Below are positions 2,223 through 56,961 of a DNA stretch of 64,000 nucleotides, piece after piece. A program made the translations under genes and the position numbers. The notes below the pieces were generated by a model. The model was given only the letters and a program-made list of their open reading frames with translations, was not told where the DNA came from and did not search any database. The DNA lies in NCBI GenBank assembly GCA_003242315.2, contig QGUY02000003.1:141-64140 (forward strand), written 5' to 3'. Source of the DNA: Bacteroidota bacterium (lineage in GTDB: Bacteria; Bacteroidota; Bacteroidia; Cytophagales; Cyclobacteriaceae). Positions within the stretch are counted from its first letter, which is position 1. Every line of letters begins with the position of its first letter.

Positions 2223-3269
2223 ATGGGTAAACGCACCTTTGCGAGTGACAACTATGCCGGCGTGCATCCGGCAATTCTCGAGGCTTTGATCCAGGCGAAT
2301 GAGGGTCACGCTCCATCCTACGCGTCCGATGCATATACCCAACGGGCTGTCGGACGGTTCAAGGAATTGTTTGGCGAAGACGTCGAGGCCTTTTTCGTTT
2401 ACAACGGTACGGGCGCAAACGTGTCGGCGTTGTCCGCAATGACGCGGTCTTATCACGCGATCATTTGCTCGGAGCTTGCACACATAAATGTTGACGAATC
2501 AACGGCTCCGGAACACTTCACCGGATGTAAGCTGTTGCCCATACCCACTGACGATGGTAAGCTTTATCCACATCAGATCGAAGACCGGATTCAGCGTATA
2601 GGTGATCAACACCATGCGCAGGCAAAGGTCATCTCCATCTCGCAAAGCACAGAATACGGAACCGTCTATACCATTGATGAAGTCCGCGCAATCGCTGATA
2701 CGGCCAAACGGCACAACCTGCTCCTTCACATGGACGGATCCAGGATTTCAAACGCGGCCGTGGCGCTTAATGCCCCCTTTCGCGCATTTACGCGCGACGC
2801 GGGCGTCGACGTGTTGTCGTTTGGCGGCACCAAAAACGGGTTAATGTTTGGCGAGGCCGTGTTGTTTTTCAACCCGAAACTCGCGTCCGACTTTCCCTTC
2901 ATCCGAAAGCACGCCATGCAACTACACTCCAAGATGCGCTTTATCGGCGCTCAGTTCGACCGGCTCCTGGCCGATGATCTGTGGGCTGTGAATGCACGCC
3001 ACGCCAATCATATGGCACGCGAACTCGCAACGCGAATTGAAAAGATCAATGGTGTTACCATCACGAGAAAAGTTGAAGCCAATAGCGTCTTTGTTATCCT
3101 CCCTCCTGTCGTTGCTTCAAAGGTGCAGGAAGAATACTTTTTCTATCCGTGGAATGAAAAGATCAATGAATACCGCCTGATGTGCGCATTTGATACGACG
3201 CTGGAGGATATTGAGGATTTTGTGAAAAAACTGGAGAAGGCAATGATAACTTCACCAATTCGCAGGTAA
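2223..3269 (+). CDS. Threonine aldolase / beta-eliminating lyase family PLP enzyme
   Basis: Motifs FASDNYAGVHP, NGTGANV, HMDGSR and SFGGTKNG. I prefer ATG 2223 (MGKRTFASDN) over the ORF-track start at 2178. Confidence 0.75.
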   Translation: MGKRTFASDNYAGVHPAILEALIQANEGHAPSYASDAYTQRAVGRFKELFGEDVEAFFVYNGTGANVSALSAMTRSYHAIICSELAHINVDESTAPEHFTGCKLLPIPTDDGKLYPHQIEDRIQRIGDQHHAQAKVISISQSTEYGTVYTIDEVRAIADTAKRHNLLLHMDGSRISNAAVALNAPFRAFTRDAGVDVLSFGGTKNGLMFGEAVLFFNPKLASDFPFIRKHAMQLHSKMRFIGAQFDRLLADDLWAVNARHANHMARELATRIEKINGVTITRKVEANSVFVILPPVVASKVQEEYFFYPWNEKINEYRLMCAFDTTLEDIEDFVKKLEKAMITSPIRR

Positions 3270-49021: not shown

Positions 49022-50200
49022 ATGTATTTGATGGAACAAACCATGCGGTGGTATGGACCCAACGATCCGGTCAGCCTGCAGGATATCAGGCAGGCGGGTT
49101 GCACGGGCGTGGTCACCGCGTTGCATCACATCCCTGTTGGAGAGATCTGGACAGTAGAAGAAATTGACAAACGCAGGAAGCATATAGAAGACGCAGGCAT
49201 GACCTGGACAGTCATCGAAAGCCTTCCTGTTCATGAAGATATCAAGAAGCATTCAGGGCAATACGAAAAATACATTGAGAACTACAAAGTCAGCCTGAAG
49301 AATGTCGCAGCGTGCGGGCTGAAAGTTGTTACGTACAACTTCATGCCTATCCTCGACTGGATGCGGACGGATCCCAACTACACGCTTCCCGAAGGAAGTA
49401 AGGCATTGCGCTTCGAGAAGTCGGCGTTCATTGCTTTTGATCTGTTCCTGTTGAAGCGTCCCGGTGCGGAAAAAGATTATACCCCCGAAGAGATTGCAAA
49501 GGCCAAAGCACGGCTAACAAGCATGACGGACCAGGAAAAGGAGACATTGTATCGCAATGCTTTGCTGGGCCTTCCCGGAAGCGAAGAGCGTTTTACGGAA
49601 GAACAGATACTCACAGCCCTGAAAACCTACGCGCATATTGATGCCGCGCGTTTGAAGGAAAATCTATTCTACTTCCTAAAACAGGTAGTGCCTGTCGCGG
49701 AAGAGCTTGGATTGAAGATGGCTATCCATCCCGATGACCCCCCCTATCCCATTCTCGGCCTGCCGAGGGTTGTGAGCACGGAACAAGACGCAACCGAACT
49801 CATCCAGGCTGCGCCGTCGCCCGCCAATGGACTTTGCTTCTGCACGGGTTCATACGGCGTACGGCCAGACAACGACCTGCCGGGCATGGTTAGGAGGCTT
49901 GGCGATCACATTCACTTCCTCCACCTCCGAAACACGAAGCGCGACAGCGAAGGGAACTTCTACGAGGCCAATCACCTCGATGGCGATACCGACATGGTGG
50001 CGGTAGTGACCGAAGTGCTCCATCTTATGCAGCGGCGAAAGGTATCTATCCCTATGCGCCCGGATCATGGACACGTGATGTTAGACGATCTGAAGAAGAC
50101 AACCTATCCAGGGTACTCGGCGATTGGGCGGTTGAAAGGATTGGCGGAACTGAGAGGGCTGGAGTTGGGACTTAGCAGGACTATTGATAGTAGGCAGTAG
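49022..50200 (+). CDS. uxuA: Mannonate dehydratase
   Basis: [17 protein letters not shown]-terminus and the overall UxuA pattern (HPDDPP, FCTGSYG). The start may be ATG 49031. Confidence 0.9.
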
Positions 50201-50627: not shown

Positions 50628-51371
50628 TCAGATCACCTTAAACAGCTTCGAAAACTCTTTCAGCCGCTCATCTTCCGGCCGGAGTTCAGTAATGAGATGA
50701 TCGATCGATGATAAAGGGCACACCTGCATGCGTTGCGCAGTGCCCAACTTTTCGGAGATCGTGAGAACGGCAGTAGATTCGGCGCATCGCACCATTGCCT
50801 TCTTTACCTGAACGACCTCCCAGTCGTTATCAGTAATTCCTTCTTTCAGGGCGATACCATTCGTACCCATCAGGCACAGGTCCGCGCGCAGTTCTGCAAG
50901 CTGGCTCACAACGGAAGATCCGGTGCAGATATACGAGTTTCTGGCGAGCCGACCGCCGAGAAGAATGACTTCTACTGTAGATCGTTGCGTAACTTCAAGC
51001 GCAACGAGGGGGCTTACCGTAAAGAACGTACCCTTCAAATTCTCCGGGAACAGCCGGGCCAACTCAAGCATCACAGTGCCTCCCCCAGCGAGTATCACCA
51101 TTCCATCTTTTATCAGCGACAGCGCTTTTCGCGCAATGGCAATCTTTTCCTCCCGCGCATACACTTCCGGCTGCTGATACGGATAATGGAACATGTTGGA
51201 TAACGCTCCACCATGAACCTTCACCAGCTTTCCTTTGCGTTCAAGCTCTGTGAGGTCACGCCGCACTGTATCCAACGACACATTCAGCAATTGACATAAG
51301 TCAGAAGTGAGTACCTTGTGATGGAGGTTGATTCGCTGAAGGATGAATCGTTGACGCTCTTCCTGTAACAT
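50628..51371 (-). CDS. DeoR/GlpR-family transcriptional regulator
   Basis: N-terminal HTH (ERQRFILQRINLHHKVLTSDLCQLLNVSLDTVRRDLTELE) and a C-terminal sugar-phosphate sensor domain. Confidence 0.85.
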   Translation of the reverse strand: MLQEERQRFILQRINLHHKVLTSDLCQLLNVSLDTVRRDLTELERKGKLVKVHGGALSNMFHYPYQQPEVYAREEKIAIARKALSLIKDGMVILAGGGTVMLELARLFPENLKGTFFTVSPLVALEVTQRSTVEVILLGGRLARNSYICTGSSVVSQLAELRADLCLMGTNGIALKEGITDNDWEVVQVKKAMVRCAESTAVLTISEKLGTAQRMQVCPLSSIDHLITELRPEDERLKEFSKLFKVI

Positions 51372-51495
51372 CGATCGGGGTCTGTGCCGCAAAGTTGCAG
51401 CTTTTTGCTGTATCTGTCAAAAAATGGCCGTCCCTGTAAAACGATCGGAAGAAAATCTTGCTGATTGTTGCTTTATTTCTTTACTTAGTAAAACA

Positions 51496-53337
51496 ATGAC
51501 GCAAAAAAACGCATGCCAGTTCCGATCCCACCCGCTCTGGTTCGGCGTATGGATCGCCCTGCTCCTTATCTCTACGCTCTCATCAGGGCAGCAAAAAACT
51601 GATTCCTGGATCCGCATCAATTTGCTGGGATATGCGCCCTCTTCAGTGAAGGTGGCCGTACTCGCATCGAAGGCGAGTCAGCCGGGGCCTGAAACTTTTG
51701 AGTTGGTTGACAGCCGTTCTTCCAAAGTCGTTTTTAAAGGCAAAACAGGAAAAGATTTTGGCGCTTACGGCCCCTTTACGCATACCTACCGTCTCGACTT
51801 CTCCAAATACAACCTGCCTGGAACCTACTACCTGCGCGCAGGCAGTGCACAATCACCAGAATTCAACATATCCGCTGATGTCTACAAAGGACGTCCCGAC
51901 TTCCTGCTTCAATATATGAGACAGCAACGAAGCGGGTATAATCCTTTTCTAAAGGATTCATGTCATACTCACGACGGATACACGATTTACGGACCCATGC
52001 CGGACGGCACGCACATCGACGTCTCGGGAGGATGGCATGACGCTACCGACTATCTTCAGTACTCCACAACGTCTGCAAACGCGACCTATCACCTCCTGGC
52101 CGCCTACCGCGATTTCCCCGGCTCCTTCGGAGACGAACACCTGGACAACGGACTGGAAGGAAGCAACGGAAAAGCGGATGTTCTCGACGAAGCGTTGTGG
52201 GGGCTCCAATGGCTTGAAAAAATGCATCCGCGTCCCGACTGGATGTTTAATCAACTTGCCGACGACCGCGATCACGCGGGCTTCAGACTCCCTACGCTCG
52301 ACTCAGTCGACTACGGATGGGGCAAAGGTAAAGGCCGTCCCGTATACTTTATCTCGGGCGAAGTTCAGGGCCTCTTCAAACACAAGAACCGCGCAACAGG
52401 GGCAGCTTCTACCGCGGGCAAATTTGCAAGCGCGTTCGCTCTCGGCGCACAGGTATTGAAAGACATAGATCCTTCAAGAGCGACCCGGTTTCGCGAAAAA
52501 TCACTAACCGCTTATGCATTCGGAAAAGCAAAGCCAGGTGTTGCACAGACCGCACCCGGCAGGGCACGTTACTTCTACGAAGAAGACAACTGGGTTGACG
52601 ACATGGAACTGGGCGCAGCTTCCATATTCCAACTCATAGGAGACCGAGCATATTACGATGAGGCGCTTCAGTACGGCAAACAGGAACCGGTCACGCCGTG
52701 GATCGGCACAGATACTGCGCGTCACTATCAATGGTATCCGTTCCACAACTTTGGTCACTATGAACTCGCGAAGAATGCAAATCCGGACGACCGCAAACTC
52801 CTGATCGGATTTTACCGTCAGGGAATCGAAAAGGTGTGGAACAAGGCAAAGAACAATGCCTTCTATCGCGGCGTGCCGTTTATATGGTGCTCCAACAACT
52901 TGACAACATCCTTTGCCATTCAATGCTATCTGTACCGTCAACTCACCGGCGATGAAACGTTCATCGAACTTGAGCAGGCGTGTTTCGATTGGATCTTCGG
53001 ACTCAATCCCTGGGGAACCAGCATGGTGTACGGTCTTCCTGCCGACCGGGACACGCCGACTGATCCGCATTCATCGTATACGGTACTGTACAACTATCCG
53101 ATTAACGGTGGACTGGTCGATGGCCCCGTCTACACAGCAATATTTAACAACCTGTTAGGACTGGAACTTCACGAACCTGACGAGTATGCAGAGTTCCAAT
53201 CCGACCTCGCGGTTTATCACGACGACTACGGCGATTACAGCACGAACGAACCAACTATGGACGGAACGGCATCGCTCGTTTATCTCCTCGCTGCAAAAGA
53301 TCACGAGTCCCGGGAGGTGGGCAGGAAAAAAAAGTAA
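51496..53337 (+). CDS. GH9 glycoside hydrolase with N-terminal Ig-like domain, secreted
   Basis: Signal peptide from ATG 51496. GH9 motifs DVSGGWHDATDY and STNEPTMDGTA. Ends in ...EVGRKKK-TAA on an A8 run. Confidence 0.85.
   Translation: MTQKNACQFRSHPLWFGVWIALLLISTLSSGQQKTDSWIRINLLGYAPSSVKVAVLASKASQPGPETFELVDSRSSKVVFKGKTGKDFGAYGPFTHTYRLDFSKYNLPGTYYLRAGSAQSPEFNISADVYKGRPDFLLQYMRQQRSGYNPFLKDSCHTHDGYTIYGPMPDGTHIDVSGGWHDATDYLQYSTTSANATYHLLAAYRDFPGSFGDEHLDNGLEGSNGKADVLDEALWGLQWLEKMHPRPDWMFNQLADDRDHAGFRLPTLDSVDYGWGKGKGRPVYFISGEVQGLFKHKNRATGAASTAGKFASAFALGAQVLKDIDPSRATRFREKSLTAYAFGKAKPGVAQTAPGRARYFYEEDNWVDDMELGAASIFQLIGDRAYYDEALQYGKQEPVTPWIGTDTARHYQWYPFHNFGHYELAKNANPDDRKLLIGFYRQGIEKVWNKAKNNAFYRGVPFIWCSNNLTTSFAIQCYLYRQLTGDETFIELEQACFDWIFGLNPWGTSMVYGLPADRDTPTDPHSSYTVLYNYPINGGLVDGPVYTAIFNNLLGLELHEPDEYAEFQSDLAVYHDDYGDYSTNEPTMDGTASLVYLLAAKDHESREVGRKKK
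53328..53334 (+). other. Candidate -1 frameshift heptamer A_AAA_AAG
   Basis: The heptamer is in phase with the GH9 frame, with TAA immediately 3' and GGGAGG at 53312-53317, 10 nt 5' of it. The -1 frame runs open into the deacetylase ORF. Confidence 0.45.
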
Positions 53338-53339
53338 TT

Positions 53340-54050
53340 GTTGACCCCTATGGGGCGATCGTCAGGGGTGACACGACAGAAAAAAGCATCTTCCTCGTAT
53401 TCACCGGTGATGAATTTGCGGACGGAGGTGCGGTAATTCGCAGCGTGCTGCGGCAGCGCAATGTCAAAGCAGGGTTCTTCTTCACGGGCAACTTTTACGC
53501 TAACGATGAATTTGAACCGCTGATCAAAGACCTGCTTCAGGATGGGCATTATCTCGGCGCGCATTCTGACAAGCATTTGCTGTACTGCGACTGGTCCAAA
53601 CGCGACAGCCTGCTGGTAACACGCCGTCAGTTCCGACGCGACCTGAAACGGAATTACAAGCGGATGGCGGAATTTGGGATTGATAAGAACGAAGCGAAGG
53701 TATTCCTGCCTCCGTACGAATGGTATAACGCCTCCGTTGTGAAGTGGACGCATGAGTTGGGACTCACCCTGGTGAACTTTACACCGGGAACTTTGTCGAC
53801 TGCGGATTATACCTACCCTGATATGGGTACGCGGTACAGAAACTCGGATACGATTTTTCGATCCATTATGGACTACGAATCGAATGCGCGCATCGGAATG
53901 AATGGCTTCATATTGCTTGTGCATATCGGAACTGATCCGAGGCGAACCGACAAGTTCTACGATCGACTTGACCAGTTATTGGTGACTTTGATGGAAAAAG
54001 GTTATTCATTTAAACGGATCGATGAACTTGTCCCTGAAGGGACGGAATAA
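53340..54050 (+). CDS. Polysaccharide deacetylase-family protein (NodB-like), start codon unresolved
   Basis: IFLVFTGDEFADGG, GHYLGAHSDKHLLY and LLVHIGTDPRRTDKF. The frame is open from 53181, but the first ATG/GTG/TTG is GTG 53445, which lies downstream of the first conserved motif. Confidence 0.65.
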   Translation, partial: VDPYGAIVRGDTTEKSIFLVFTGDEFADGGAVIRSVLRQRNVKAGFFFTGNFYANDEFEPLIKDLLQDGHYLGAHSDKHLLYCDWSKRDSLLVTRRQFRRDLKRNYKRMAEFGIDKNEAKVFLPPYEWYNASVVKWTHELGLTLVNFTPGTLSTADYTYPDMGTRYRNSDTIFRSIMDYESNARIGMNGFILLVHIGTDPRRTDKFYDRLDQLLVTLMEKGYSFKRIDELVPEGTE

Positions 54051-54076: not shown

Positions 54077-55015
54077 ATGGCAATTCTCGGTATCGACCTG
54101 GGTGGGACAAAGCTGGCCACCGCCGTGTTTTCGCTGGATGGCGAGATCATATTCAGCGAGTCAGTGGCACTGGGAAAGCGCAGGGATAAAGAGGTTGGCG
54201 CACTGATTACGGAGGCCGTGGCATCGCATTGTAAAAAAACAGACGTGAAGTCTATCGGCGTGTCGGTTCCCGGCATCAGCCGCCGGGAGACGGGAACCGT
54301 GTGGGCTCCGAACATTCCGGGATGGGATGACTATCCCCTGTTGAAAGAGCTCCAGGATGCGTGTCCCAACGTGCCCGTTATCATCGACAACGATCGCGCA
54401 TGCTGTATCTCAGGAGAAATATGGCGAGGGAGTGCGAAGGATTGTAAAGATGCCATCTTTCTCGCAGTGGGCACGGGCATTGGCGCGGGCATACTTTCCG
54501 GAGGTCAAATCATACGTGGCGCGCACGATATCGCCGGCGCGGTTGGCTGGATGGCGCTCCAAAAGCCCTTTCTCATGAAATACATCTCCTACGGATGCTT
54601 TGAATACTATGCGTCCGGGGATGGAATTGCACGACTCGCCAGGGAGCTGCTCACGATCCGACAAGATTACAAAGGCATGCTACGCGTGAACCCTTCTGAA
54701 CTGACGGCTCACCACGTGTTCGCTGCTTATGAAAAGCGTGATCCGCTGGCGATTACTGTGATCAGAGAATGCATTGAGTATTGGGGCATGGCTATAGCCA
54801 ACCTCATCAGCATTTTCAATCCCGAAAAGATTATTCTCGGTGGCGGCGTGTTTGGACCTGCCGTGAAATTTATCCCGGAGATCAAAGATGAAGCACTTAA
54901 ATGGGCACAACCCATCAGCGCAACTCAAGTCGACATTATTCCTTCAGCGCTGGGTGGACAGGCTGCAATCTACGGCGCGGGATACCTGGCGTTAGCCAAC
55001 CTTGCCGACCAGTAA
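54077..55015 (+). CDS. ROK-family sugar kinase
   Basis: ILGIDLGGTKLA, IDNDRACC and AVGTGIGAG. The zinc-Cys motif is only partly preserved. Confidence 0.8.
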   Translation: MAILGIDLGGTKLATAVFSLDGEIIFSESVALGKRRDKEVGALITEAVASHCKKTDVKSIGVSVPGISRRETGTVWAPNIPGWDDYPLLKELQDACPNVPVIIDNDRACCISGEIWRGSAKDCKDAIFLAVGTGIGAGILSGGQIIRGAHDIAGAVGWMALQKPFLMKYISYGCFEYYASGDGIARLARELLTIRQDYKGMLRVNPSELTAHHVFAAYEKRDPLAITVIRECIEYWGMAIANLISIFNPEKIILGGGVFGPAVKFIPEIKDEALKWAQPISATQVDIIPSALGGQAAIYGAGYLALANLADQ

Positions 55016-55019
55016 CACG

Positions 55020-56183
55020 ATGAATCAATACAAACTCACATTCGCTTCCTCCTGCTTCGGTATGCTACTCTTTGGAGTCAGTCTCATTACCCTCGGCTCC
55101 GTTTCATCCGACCTGCAGGAAAAATTCCAGCTTGATGCCGTCGACTCCGGAACACTATTTTCGATTTTGCCCATTGGCATTATCCTGGGGTCGTTGCTAT
55201 TCGGCCCCGTATCGGACCGATACGGCTACAAGTTTTTCTTCATCGCTTCGTGTATCTGTTTGCTTATAGGATTTCAGGGCATAGCGTGGTCAGATAATCT
55301 CGGGCTGCTTCGTTTTTGCATTTTTCTCTTCGGCTTTGGAGGTGGAGCGATCAACGGTGCGACGAACGCTGTTGTTGCTGACATCAGCAGCAACAACAAA
55401 GGCGCAAACCTGAGCTTGCTCGGCGTTTTCTTTGGCATTGGAGCCTTAGGAATGCCTTCCGTGCTCGGAGCGCTTGAGAAGCAATTCTCCGTGCAGCAGA
55501 TCGTGACTTCCGTGGGATTGCTTCCCGTCGCTGCGGCAGTGCTCTTCATGTTTACTCCTTTTCCTCCCCCGAAGCAAAGTCAACCGGTCGGCAGGAATGC
55601 TATACTATCCTTACTGCGCAGTGGTTTTCTGTGGCTCATTGGCTTCTTCCTTTTCTGTCAAAGCGCTGCGGAAGGTGTCATCAACAACTGGACGACGACA
55701 TACCTGGAAAAACATCTCGATTTCTCAGGAAGCGCGGCGCTGTTCAACCTATCGCTTTACGTGGGTGGGTTAACGGTCATGCGACTGGCGTTGGGAAGCG
55801 TGTTGAGAAACACTTCACCATCGCGCATTATGGCACTATCACTCGCCTTATTGTTCACAGGTGCGCTGGTACTTCGGATGACACAGACACCGGCGTTTGC
55901 AACTGCGGCGCTGATCATAACCGGCGCGGGCCTTGCGGCCGGATTTCCCGTCATGTTGGGCTTTGCAGGAGCACGTTTTGCAGAACTGTCGGCAACCGCC
56001 TTCAGCATTATTCTTACGGTAGCACTAACTGGAAATATGATCGTCAACTATGTCACCGGCGTCGTGATCGACAGGTTAGGCATAGGACAGTACACAACGA
56101 TGACGCTGGTGCTTTACGCTGCGATGGTTCCATTGACCTATTTCATTCTCAGACAACATCAAACCGAATTACATAAATCATAA
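55020..56183 (+). CDS. MFS transporter
   Basis: About 12 predicted hydrophobic helices and an MFS loop motif (GPVSDRYGYK). I prefer ATG 55020 over TTG 55002. Confidence 0.8.
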   Translation: MNQYKLTFASSCFGMLLFGVSLITLGSVSSDLQEKFQLDAVDSGTLFSILPIGIILGSLLFGPVSDRYGYKFFFIASCICLLIGFQGIAWSDNLGLLRFCIFLFGFGGGAINGATNAVVADISSNNKGANLSLLGVFFGIGALGMPSVLGALEKQFSVQQIVTSVGLLPVAAAVLFMFTPFPPPKQSQPVGRNAILSLLRSGFLWLIGFFLFCQSAAEGVINNWTTTYLEKHLDFSGSAALFNLSLYVGGLTVMRLALGSVLRNTSPSRIMALSLALLFTGALVLRMTQTPAFATAALIITGAGLAAGFPVMLGFAGARFAELSATAFSIILTVALTGNMIVNYVTGVVIDRLGIGQYTTMTLVLYAAMVPLTYFILRQHQTELHKS

Positions 56184-56199
56184 CCACTCTAATCAAATT

Positions 56200-56961
56200 A
56201 TGCTGGCTCAACAATGGCTCAACAATGCGCGTCAGGTAATGGCGCGAATCGAGGAAACTCAACTGGACAACATCAGGAAGGCGGCTGAAATCATGGCTGA
56301 CACCATCGAAGCAGGCCGATGGGTTCACACCTTTGGTTGCGGACACGCCACCATACCCATCGAAGAAATGTATCCCCGCATTGGGGGCTTCGTTGGATTT
56401 CATCCCCTGATCGAACTTCCTTTGACATTCTTTACAAGGATCACCGGTGAGATGGGCGTCCATCAGTTCCTCTTCCTCGAACGCGTAGAAGGATACGGAG
56501 GTGCCATCATGAAGAGCTACGATTTCGATCCTCGCGACACGATGTGGATATTCTCACACTCCGGGATCAACAACGTCAATATTGACGTCGCTCTCGAATC
56601 CAAAAAGCGGGGAATGAAGGTCATCGTGTTTGGCTCCGCGGCAGAAGCAAAAGGAAAAAAATCACGGCATTCGACCGGAAAGACGCTTTTCGAGATCGCT
56701 GATCTCGTCGTCGACTCCTGCGCCCCGATTGAGGACGCGTCGGTACCGCTAAAAAATCACCAGGATAAAGTAGGACCCGTCTCCACCATGGCCTTCATCA
56801 CCTGCGTCTGGATGACCGTAACTACCGTCGCCGAAATCCTCGCCGACCGTGGCGTTAAACTCTTCATTCACCCGTCACACAACGTTCCCGGTGACACCAC
56901 CGCCCGCGAACGTTTAGACGCGGCGTTGGCAGAGTATAAAAGAAGAGTGCAGGGAGTGTAA
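56200..56961 (+). CDS. SIS-domain protein (UPF0309-like)
   Basis: 253 aa. HTFGCGHA and IFSHSGIN motifs of the sugar isomerase/phosphosugar-binding fold. Confidence 0.7.
   Translation: MLAQQWLNNARQVMARIEETQLDNIRKAAEIMADTIEAGRWVHTFGCGHATIPIEEMYPRIGGFVGFHPLIELPLTFFTRITGEMGVHQFLFLERVEGYGGAIMKSYDFDPRDTMWIFSHSGINNVNIDVALESKKRGMKVIVFGSAAEAKGKKSRHSTGKTLFEIADLVVDSCAPIEDASVPLKNHQDKVGPVSTMAFITCVWMTVTTVAEILADRGVKLFIHPSHNVPGDTTARERLDAALAEYKRRVQGV

Follow-up and report, generated by a model that had tools for sequence, protein, structure and literature searches.

The stretch of DNA analysed in this work, hereafter the window, comprises 64,000 nucleotides from a Bacteroidota bacterium of the family Cyclobacteriaceae (contig QGUY02000003.1, positions 141 to 64,140). 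It carries the gene of a secreted glycoside hydrolase of family 9 (GH9), followed by a start-less reading frame for a NodB/CE4-type polysaccharide deacetylase, which lies in the -1 frame relative to GH9. From the sequence of this junction and of its counterparts in related species, we consider it likely that the 3' end of the GH9 gene bears a dnaX-type programmed -1 ribosomal frameshift site, at which the two enzymes would be joined into one polypeptide. A preliminary description of the window had put forward such a fusion as one of three options, the other two being a sequencing error or mutation in the A-rich run at the junction and the use of the non-canonical start codon ATT by the deacetylase.

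In the mechanism that we propose, only part of the ribosomes would slip. Most of them would decode AAA AAG, terminate at the TAA stop codon at 53335 and so yield GH9 without the deacetylase. On A_AAA_AAG (53328-53334), a fraction would move back by one base as both tRNA-Lys re-pair with AAA AAA, and would then decode GTA ATT GTT GAC and the following codons in the -1 frame up to position 54050. The shifted product would be a single pre-protein of 851 or 875 amino acids, made up of the signal peptide, an Ig-like CelD_N domain, GH9, a Lys-rich linker of approximately 20 amino acids and the NodB/CE4 deacetylase, with the junction ...EVGRKKK|VIVDPYGAIVRGD.... The slip would probably be stimulated by a Shine-Dalgarno (SD)-like motif, GGGAGGTG, pairing 10 nucleotides (nt) upstream of the heptamer with the 3' tail of the 16S rRNA, with a probable contribution from the stop codon next to the heptamer and a possible one from a local hairpin. 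Frameshifting would in this way fix how much GH9 is made relative to the GH9-deacetylase fusion, and it would be the only route of the leaderless deacetylase to translation and export. Neither the 851- nor the 875-amino-acid trans-frame protein was present, by exact look-up, in a collection of 15 billion proteins.

The GH9-deacetylase junction in the window

The GH9 open reading frame (ORF), which defines the 0 frame, extends from 51424 to 53337 on the forward strand, TAA stop codon included, and encodes 637 amino acids. Its identity was established from the list of ORFs and from two Pfam matches, both above the gathering scores: an N-terminal Ig-like domain (CelD_N, PF02927, residues 59-143, 75.2 bits, E=7e-21) and the catalytic domain (Glyco_hydro_9, PF00759, residues 161-622, 224.4 bits, E=4.7e-66). 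The nearest relative in the PDB is an endoglucanase (3x17, E=3e-28). A second candidate start codon, ATG 51496, would give 613 amino acids, and the public gene calls (NCBI and JGI models) are divided between the two; the NCBI model for this genome is the 613-amino-acid form (MFO7256260.1 / PZN52507.1). Only in this shorter form does a signal-peptide-like segment, MTQKNACQFRSHPLWFGVWIALLLISTLSSG|QQ, recognised by inspection only, stand at the N-terminus.

The 3' end of the GH9 gene reads CGG GAG GTG GGC AGG AAA AAA AAG TAA. It includes a run of eight A (53326-53333, forward strand), which holds the slippery site and where some minor transcriptional slippage may occur as well. In the phase of the 0 frame, the slippery heptamer A_AAA_AAG occupies positions 53328-53334 of the same strand (codons AAA at 53329-31 and AAG at 53332-34). 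It is followed at once by the TAA (53335-53337, forward strand) that ends the stand-alone GH9 and that is a probable 'shifty stop' stimulator. The SD-like motif GGGAGGTG is located at 53312-53319 on the forward strand and is conserved among orthologues. Within it, GGGAGG (53312-53317) ends 10 nt before the heptamer, and GGAGGTG, the 7-nt complement of the 16S 3' tail CACCUCC, ends 8 nt before it. The coordinates given in the preliminary description for the end of GH9, the heptamer, the A run and the stop codon were all found to be correct, and the same is true of the dnaX-like spacing of GGGAGG, which, as described below, is kept together with its sequence at synonymous sites.

Past the slip site, a local stem-loop was predicted at 53339-53378 on the forward strand (RNAfold, -14.7 kcal/mol, z=-2.12); it is specific to the lineage and not kept across the subtype to which the window belongs. 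The CCCC at 53345-48 and its two possible partners, GGGG at 53352-55 and at 53365-68, are present as reported earlier. Three features characterise dnaX-type sites at the sequence level: a slippery heptamer in phase where the two frames overlap, an ORF in the -1 frame that lacks a start of its own, and an SD-like element approximately 10-14 nt 5' of the heptamer. The window has all of them. As for the downstream structure, the window hairpin reaches only -14.7 kcal/mol with z=-2.1, and it is the relatives of the second subtype (type ii, see below) that possess a marked one.

The heptamer alone is ordinary in the window, where AAAAAAG occurs 9 times against 11.5 expected; the composite GGAGG-N10-AAAAAAG occurs once, against 0.02 expected. 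The true significance of the slip site rests on its conservation across species. A second AAAAAAG, at 53380-53386, belongs to the deacetylase coding region (ACA GAA AAA AGC) and recurs in one orthologous locus (L001); being out of the X_XXY_YYZ phase of the deacetylase frame, it is probably ordinary coding sequence. A scan of positions 53200-53500 with the Rfam covariance models, curated frameshift elements included, gave no match at E<=10; the window site is therefore an independently arisen analogue, and not a homologue, of the known frameshift elements.

The deacetylase coding sequence, on the forward strand, extends from 53334 to 54050 in the -1 frame and has 238 codons plus the stop when read from GTA 53334. 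As had been described, this frame is uninterrupted from 53181 to 54050, and its first ATG, GTG or TTG is the GTG at 53445. A match to PF01522 covers residues 12-146 of the translation from 53334 and positions 2-123 of the profile (51.1 bits, cut-off 23.1), so that the deacetylase domain begins 12 codons past the heptamer, and Bacillus subtilis PdaA (1ny1) can be aligned from residue 2 of the -1 product. By inspection, the motifs HSDKH, LPPYEWY and LLVHIG are also present. The deacetylase is closest to the PdaA-type NodB enzymes, but scores under the cut-off of every NCBIfam equivalog.

Prodigal-type gene callers start the deacetylase at GTG 53445, the first canonical start codon in the frame, and the resulting 201-amino-acid product has been called in approximately 100 assemblies. 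Such a start would delete positions 1-26 of the PF01522 profile together with the conserved TGDEFADGG motif. The segment IFLVFTGDEFADGG, encoded at 53388-53429, had been pointed out as a NodB-type motif lying upstream of this GTG; it falls inside the PF01522 match and would be lost as well. The 37 start-less codons between the heptamer and GTG 53445 are under purifying selection: compared with 14 orthologues, their ratio of non-synonymous to synonymous substitution rates (dN/dS) is 0.05-0.29, with dS near saturation. Because of this ratio, and because the predicted junction peptides match those of in-frame fusions (see below), this segment appears to be translated. Together with the alignment of PdaA from residue 2, this makes a start at GTG 53445 hardly credible.

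Junction states and slip-site conservation in related Bacteroidota

Homologous loci were found by alignment of the deacetylase in one genome per GTDB species, and junction positions were taken from tblastn-extrapolated coordinates. The survey comprised 80 loci in addition to the window, from Cyclobacteriaceae, Pontibacter, Roseivirgaceae, Chitinophagaceae, Pedobacter, Dyadobacter and other taxa. In this set, GH9 and the deacetylase overlap in the -1 frame at 33 junctions and are fused in frame at 29, and 19 deacetylases are separate or have no close GH9 adjacent; neither +1 junctions nor in-frame stops were found (0 of each). The comparison of orthologous loci proposed in the preliminary description has yielded each of the states that it had envisaged, fused, separate with an own start, and -1 with the same heptamer, and it strongly supports the first of the three options, a fusion by -1 slippage. 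The -1 arrangement is present in cultured isolates of Pontibacter, Pedobacter, Flavihumibacter and Arcticibacter, with runs of six, eight or nine A (A6, A8 or A9). On a rough neighbour-joining tree the states are intermixed, with at least 16 switches between the -1 state and the others, and because of this interspersion the pattern is not one inherited accident.

The three states also differ in how the deacetylase could be exported. An own start codon followed by a hydrophobic leader was found in 18 of the 19 stand-alone deacetylases and in none of the 33 of the -1 class, leaders being called with a Kyte-Doolittle window (a stricter criterion of 12 uncharged residues gave 3/19). The deacetylase is either leader-bearing, fused to a leader-bearing GH9, or start-less in the -1 frame behind GH9, in agreement with the earlier suggestion that it would obtain its missing signal peptide through a fusion. 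At 29 of the 33 -1 loci, no ATG, GTG or TTG occurs in the -1 frame upstream of the domain.

Two observations concern the homologues encoded apart from a complete GH9. Many stand-alone deacetylases of approximately 250-300 amino acids are labelled 'endoglucanase' by JGI (e.g. P0024, P0027, P0056 and P0062), a label probably carried over from GH9-deacetylase fusions. In a 320-amino-acid homologue (P0058), a GH9-like signal peptide and part of CelD_N (MKRLLVFSFLFVLLTSFNSEKTPDSWIGTNQL...) are joined straight to the deacetylase, apparently through deletion of the GH9 catalytic domain. This would fit with the deacetylase needing the GH9 leader for export; an assembly chimera could also account for it.

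The in-frame fusions of sister species match the predicted trans-frame junction peptides. The fusion peptide TPKKVLVSIEGGETKFL of Pedobacter mendelii (L072) can be compared with the predicted KPKK|VLAPVRGGETVSL (L078) and RPKK|VGASAARGETKFL (L071), and the in-frame fusion DKKSVIIDHGAVVRG of L074 (DKKSVIIDHG) with GRKKK|VIVDPYGAIVRG of the window (KKK|VIVDPYG). At the P. mendelii junction (positions ~2940-3000), the A run has seven residues where L071, L073 and L078 have six (CCA AAA AAA GTC...), which makes it an in-frame fusion, and a hairpin-like GTCTCC...GGAGGC is retained. To judge from these sequences, a difference of one base in the A run is enough to turn the frameshift form into the standard-decoding form.

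Homopolymers are prone to error, and the in-frame A7 variant of P. mendelii illustrates that a single base separates the states. The A8 of the window might accordingly be an error for A9, and the gene a plain fusion, or a recent deletion might have turned the deacetylase into a pseudogene. The junction, however, is identical over 181 nt (53280-53460) in five independent assemblies from different samples (L087-L091), at least 24 contigs display the same pattern of gene calls, and 32 further species, isolates among them, show the -1 state too. The deacetylase is moreover intact, with a dN/dS of 0.05-0.3, and random indels would have yielded +1 cases, of which there are none. Error or decay is thus very improbable, assembly error and pseudogenisation being excluded as far as sequence data allow, and the option of a sequencing error or mutation in the A8 run, left open in the preliminary description, is weakened.

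The -1 junctions show constraint on the nucleotide sequence itself. An in-phase, A-rich X_XXY_YYZ heptamer is present in 33/33 of them, between the last stop codon of the -1 frame and the 0-frame stop, even where this interval, within which the shift is permitted, measures only 10-28 nt. The A run has six residues at 20 junctions, seven at 2, eight at 3 and nine at 8; in each of the 20 A6 runs the first A is the third base of a codon, which sets the A_AAA_AAG phase, and a G follows the run at 30 of the 33 junctions. The codon before the heptamer is always NNA (AAA, AGA, CCA, GCA, GGA or GTA) despite the varied amino acid that it encodes (K/R/P/A/G/V). From the codon usage of these same genes, the probability of NNA AAA AAG given x-K-K is approximately 0.04 per lineage.

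SD-like motifs accompany 26/33 -1 junctions but only 3/29 of the in-frame fusions (Fisher p=4e-8; this and the other statistics are uncorrected for phylogeny). The Glu codon within the motif is GAG in 16/16 type-i and 9/9 type-ii loci, compared with background usages of 0.44 and 0.26, respectively, which argues that the motif is under selection at synonymous sites.

The -1 junctions fall into three subtypes. Type i, found in the window, Cyclobacteriaceae, Pontibacter, Flavihumibacter, Daejeonella and Arcticibacter, consists of GGAGG, a variable spacer of 10 nt and A_AAA_AAG, with TAA or TAG at once thereafter in all type-i loci; GGAGG and AAAAAAGTA are invariant islands in 18/18 of these. Type ii, found in Pedobacter and Chitinophagaceae, consists of AGGAGG, 13 nt, A_AAA_AAG, 5 nt and a GC-rich hairpin of 6 bp. 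In the type-ii hairpin 98% of the cells are paired, compared with 40-60% in slid controls, and two of the pairs show compensatory changes; one locus with a shorter loop, misaligned by MAFFT (L063), was left out of this count. Type iii is characterised by A9 runs with neither SD-like motif nor hairpin, in four Chitinophagaceae loci (L035, L037, L039 and L055) and in Chryseosolibacter (L060). In L035, L037 and L039 the -1 frame opens within the A run, after a TAA made from T plus AA.

Ribosomal slippage weighed against initiation and transcription

Several points weigh against a ribosomal frameshift, and they concern the translation machinery of the hosts, initiation of the deacetylase on its own, and transcription. 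A tRNA-Lys with the anticodon CUU would reduce slippage on AAG, and the set of tRNA-Lys of the carriers is a caveat: a tRNA scan of the window found no tRNA, and hence no tRNA-Lys. In Bacteroidia the ribosomes sequester the anti-SD sequence, so that an SD action like that in Escherichia coli is in doubt here, and frameshifting in the prfB gene of Flavobacterium johnsoniae, at approximately 7%, is SD-independent (PMC10798248). RNAalifold gave no consensus downstream structure for the 18 type-i junctions, which, like the merely local hairpin of the window, bears out the weakness of the downstream structure remarked on earlier; a conserved downstream hairpin, considered as an element of type i, was dropped on that account. 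Finally, GTG or TTG occurs near the junction at 4 of the 33 -1 loci, some of which may initiate the deacetylase independently.

The reservation about the SD-like motif had been anticipated in the preliminary description, which noted that Bacteroidota ribosomes probably make little use of SD pairing. It is legitimate in view of the sequestered anti-SD (PMC10798248), and is countered by the strong conservation of GGAGG at synonymous sites. The SD of prfB is itself conserved in Chitinophagales and Sphingobacteriales (PMC10798248, PMC8710568).

Two separate proteins would be made if the deacetylase initiated at ATT 53337, whose first base is the last one of the GH9 stop codon (TAATT), or if ribosomes re-initiated there after the overlapping TAA; the deacetylase would then be a cytoplasmic enzyme of 237 amino acids. 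This is the NCBI annotation for this genome, a 237-amino-acid model beginning with MVDPYG at the ATT position (MFO7256261.1 / PZN52506.1). Stop-start overlaps are a common form of coupling, ATT, ATA and ATC are near-cognate start codons, and four type-i loci (L001, L003 and the representatives L008 and L020) have GTG at this place (TAGTG), with products called as 237-239 amino acids. Yet the overlap in the window, TAATT, is not a canonical one, and among the type-i representatives the codon is ATA in four, ATC in three, GTC, GTG and ATT in two each, and GTT and ACG in one each. It is thus non-canonical in 13/15, and GTC, GTT and ACG are not starts, a pattern that fits with the preservation of Ile or Val and not of a start codon. 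With 10 nt to the heptamer, a spacing suited to frameshift stimulation, and 19 nt to the ATT, the SD-like motif is too distant from the latter to drive initiation there, and the type-ii junctions contain 38 nt without any start. A leaderless cytoplasmic form would also reside in another compartment than its relatives, which are leader-bearing or fused to GH9, and it would leave unexplained the invariant in-phase heptamer, the NNA codon and the fact that all 33 overlaps are -1. Initiation at the ATT, the third option of the preliminary description, is weakened by these findings, and we judge it quite improbable.

The same fusion could also arise by standard decoding if RNA polymerase stuttered on the A8 run and added one A to some of the mRNAs, as one additional A restores the correct frame. 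The A run measures A8 in the window and A9 in several relatives, and the five A9 junctions of type iii, which lack an SD-like motif and a hairpin, need no ribosomal stimulators; type iii may rely on transcriptional slippage rather than on ribosomal frameshifting. Programmed transcriptional realignment involves approximately nine or more A or T, a length that the A8 of the window does not reach and for which the A9 minority subtype may qualify. Against it, the run is limited to A6 at 20 of the 33 junctions, a length at which polymerase slippage is not efficient, and all of these are in phase for tandem tRNA slippage, whereas slippage during transcription is independent of phase. Selection has moreover kept signals that are directed at the ribosome, namely an SD-like motif 10-13 nt upstream, a stop codon next to the heptamer and a hairpin 5 nt downstream. 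Transcriptional realignment as the general mechanism is therefore unlikely, and programmed ribosomal frameshifting remains the reading that we prefer.

Known recoding systems, genomic context and significance

In E. coli, dnaX yields the tau and gamma subunits by means of an A_AAA_AAG heptamer, an SD-like AGGGAG 10 nt upstream and a stem-loop approximately 6 nt downstream. The heptamer of the window site is identical and in the identical phase, its SD-like motif likewise stands 10 nt away, its sister lineages of type ii have a GC-rich stem-loop 5 nt downstream, and in both cases a non-mobile chromosomal gene would give two products from one mRNA. Unlike in dnaX, where the shifted product is the shorter one because of an early stop in the -1 frame, the shift in the window would add a whole enzyme domain. 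The subtype of the window has an adjacent 0-frame stop codon in place of the conserved hairpin, and its host phylum sequesters the anti-SD.

The orfA-orfB genes of IS911 and of the IS3 family combine A_AAA_AAG with an upstream SD and a downstream structure, and produce a fusion transposase. They have in common with the window a heptamer near the stop codon of the upstream ORF, a -1 ORF without an efficient start, and a trans-frame fusion as the functional product, which in the window is a predicted one. In contrast to these elements, the pair described here is non-mobile; its partners are two domains of carbohydrate-active enzymes, and it lies in a conserved locus for sugar utilisation.

A glycoside hydrolase gene expressed through -1 frameshifting is also known from archaea, namely the alpha-L-fucosidase gene fucA1 of Sulfolobus solfataricus, in which the shift reportedly uses an A-rich heptamer. 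In fucA1 the shift unites two halves of one enzyme, whereas in the window it would join two complete enzymes, of which the upstream one would also be made alone. Programmed -1 frameshifting reportedly joins the two ORFs of this hydrolase, which was the sole precedent among glycoside hydrolases to surface in the literature search (PMC8037382).

Within the phylum itself, prfB of Bacteroidia has a conserved intragenic SD at a recoding site by a stop codon, although the phylum otherwise avoids SD sequences (PMC10798248, PMC8710568). The window site resembles it in having an intragenic SD-like motif at a putative recoding site that adjoins a stop codon. It differs in that prfB shifts +1 on CUU_UGA, with an SD spacing of 3 nt, in the service of autoregulation, whereas the sites described here would shift -1 on A_AAA_AAG, with a spacing of 10-13 nt, and give a fusion enzyme. 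By its sequence, the window site would be a second natural recoding site in the phylum with a conserved intragenic SD. The in-frame GH9-CE4 fusions of Chitinophagaceae, Pedobacter and Dyadobacter, for their part, share the domain order, linker length and junction peptide of the predicted product, and differ from it by standard decoding, which gives 100% fusion and no stand-alone GH9.

Keyword searches of the literature found no earlier description of a GH9-deacetylase frameshift. The pair is not mentioned in the GeneTack survey (main text and two supplements) or in a 2016 review of recoding, and a proteomics paper on soil Bacteroidetes mentions a GH8-CE4 enzyme and no GH9-CE4.

The junction lies in a locus whose gene order (DeoR / GH9 / deacetylase / ROK kinase / MFS / SIS) is kept across orthologous loci. 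A DeoR-family regulator is encoded divergently at 50628-51392 on the reverse strand, with synteny in L001, L003 and L004. Downstream, and co-oriented with GH9 on the forward strand, are the genes of a ROK sugar kinase (54077-55015), an MFS transporter (55002-56183) and a protein with a SIS sugar-isomerase domain (56200-56961). These neighbours would point to the uptake and catabolism of a released sugar. A role of the GH9-deacetylase in the breakdown of an acetylated or amino-sugar beta-glycan is one that we can only infer, and neither the PDB nor the NCBIfam matches of the two enzymes indicate the substrate, be it a chitooligosaccharide or another acetylated beta-glycan. The first 14 nt of the MFS ORF, which starts at TTG 55002, are shared with the 3' end of the ROK kinase gene (55002-55015); in other assemblies the MFS start is placed further downstream, and the product varies from 373 to 393 amino acids across gene calls. 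A mannonate dehydratase gene (uxuA, E=1e-167) at 49022-50200, directly upstream of the DeoR regulator, is also found beside the locus in L004 and hints at a tie with hexuronate metabolism.

To our knowledge, only few chromosomal, non-mobile bacterial genes employ programmed -1 frameshifting. The site described here would add a case conserved across Cytophagales, Chitinophagales and Sphingobacteriales, for which cultured carriers exist, among them Pontibacter lucknowensis DM9, P. flavimaris, Pedobacter aquatilis CECT 7114 and Flavihumibacter soli. It would also correct the annotation of these loci, in which gene callers either shorten the deacetylase to 201-205 amino acids, so that the catalytic Asp motif is lost, or start it ad hoc at an ATT, and in neither case give the bifunctional enzyme. 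One and the same gene pair would exist in three interchangeable states, separate with a leader, fused in frame and fused by frameshifting, and because these states are one base apart, the pair may constitute a clean natural system for the study of why selection favours a fixed ratio between two products.

The conserved SD-like stimulator would further make the role of the conserved anti-SD in Bacteroidia directly testable at a second site besides prfB. We tentatively raise the possibility, itself rather doubtful, that the ribosomes of Bacteroidia use SD/anti-SD pairing in elongation and not in initiation, despite the sequestration of the anti-SD on the 30S platform. If so, anything that frees the 16S 3' tail, for example the state of bS21 or stress, could tune the efficiency of frameshifting and with it the ratio of GH9 to the fusion, and a structural peculiarity of the phylum would become a regulatory input for polysaccharide degradation. 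This would help to account for a conserved anti-SD in a phylum that avoids SD sequences.

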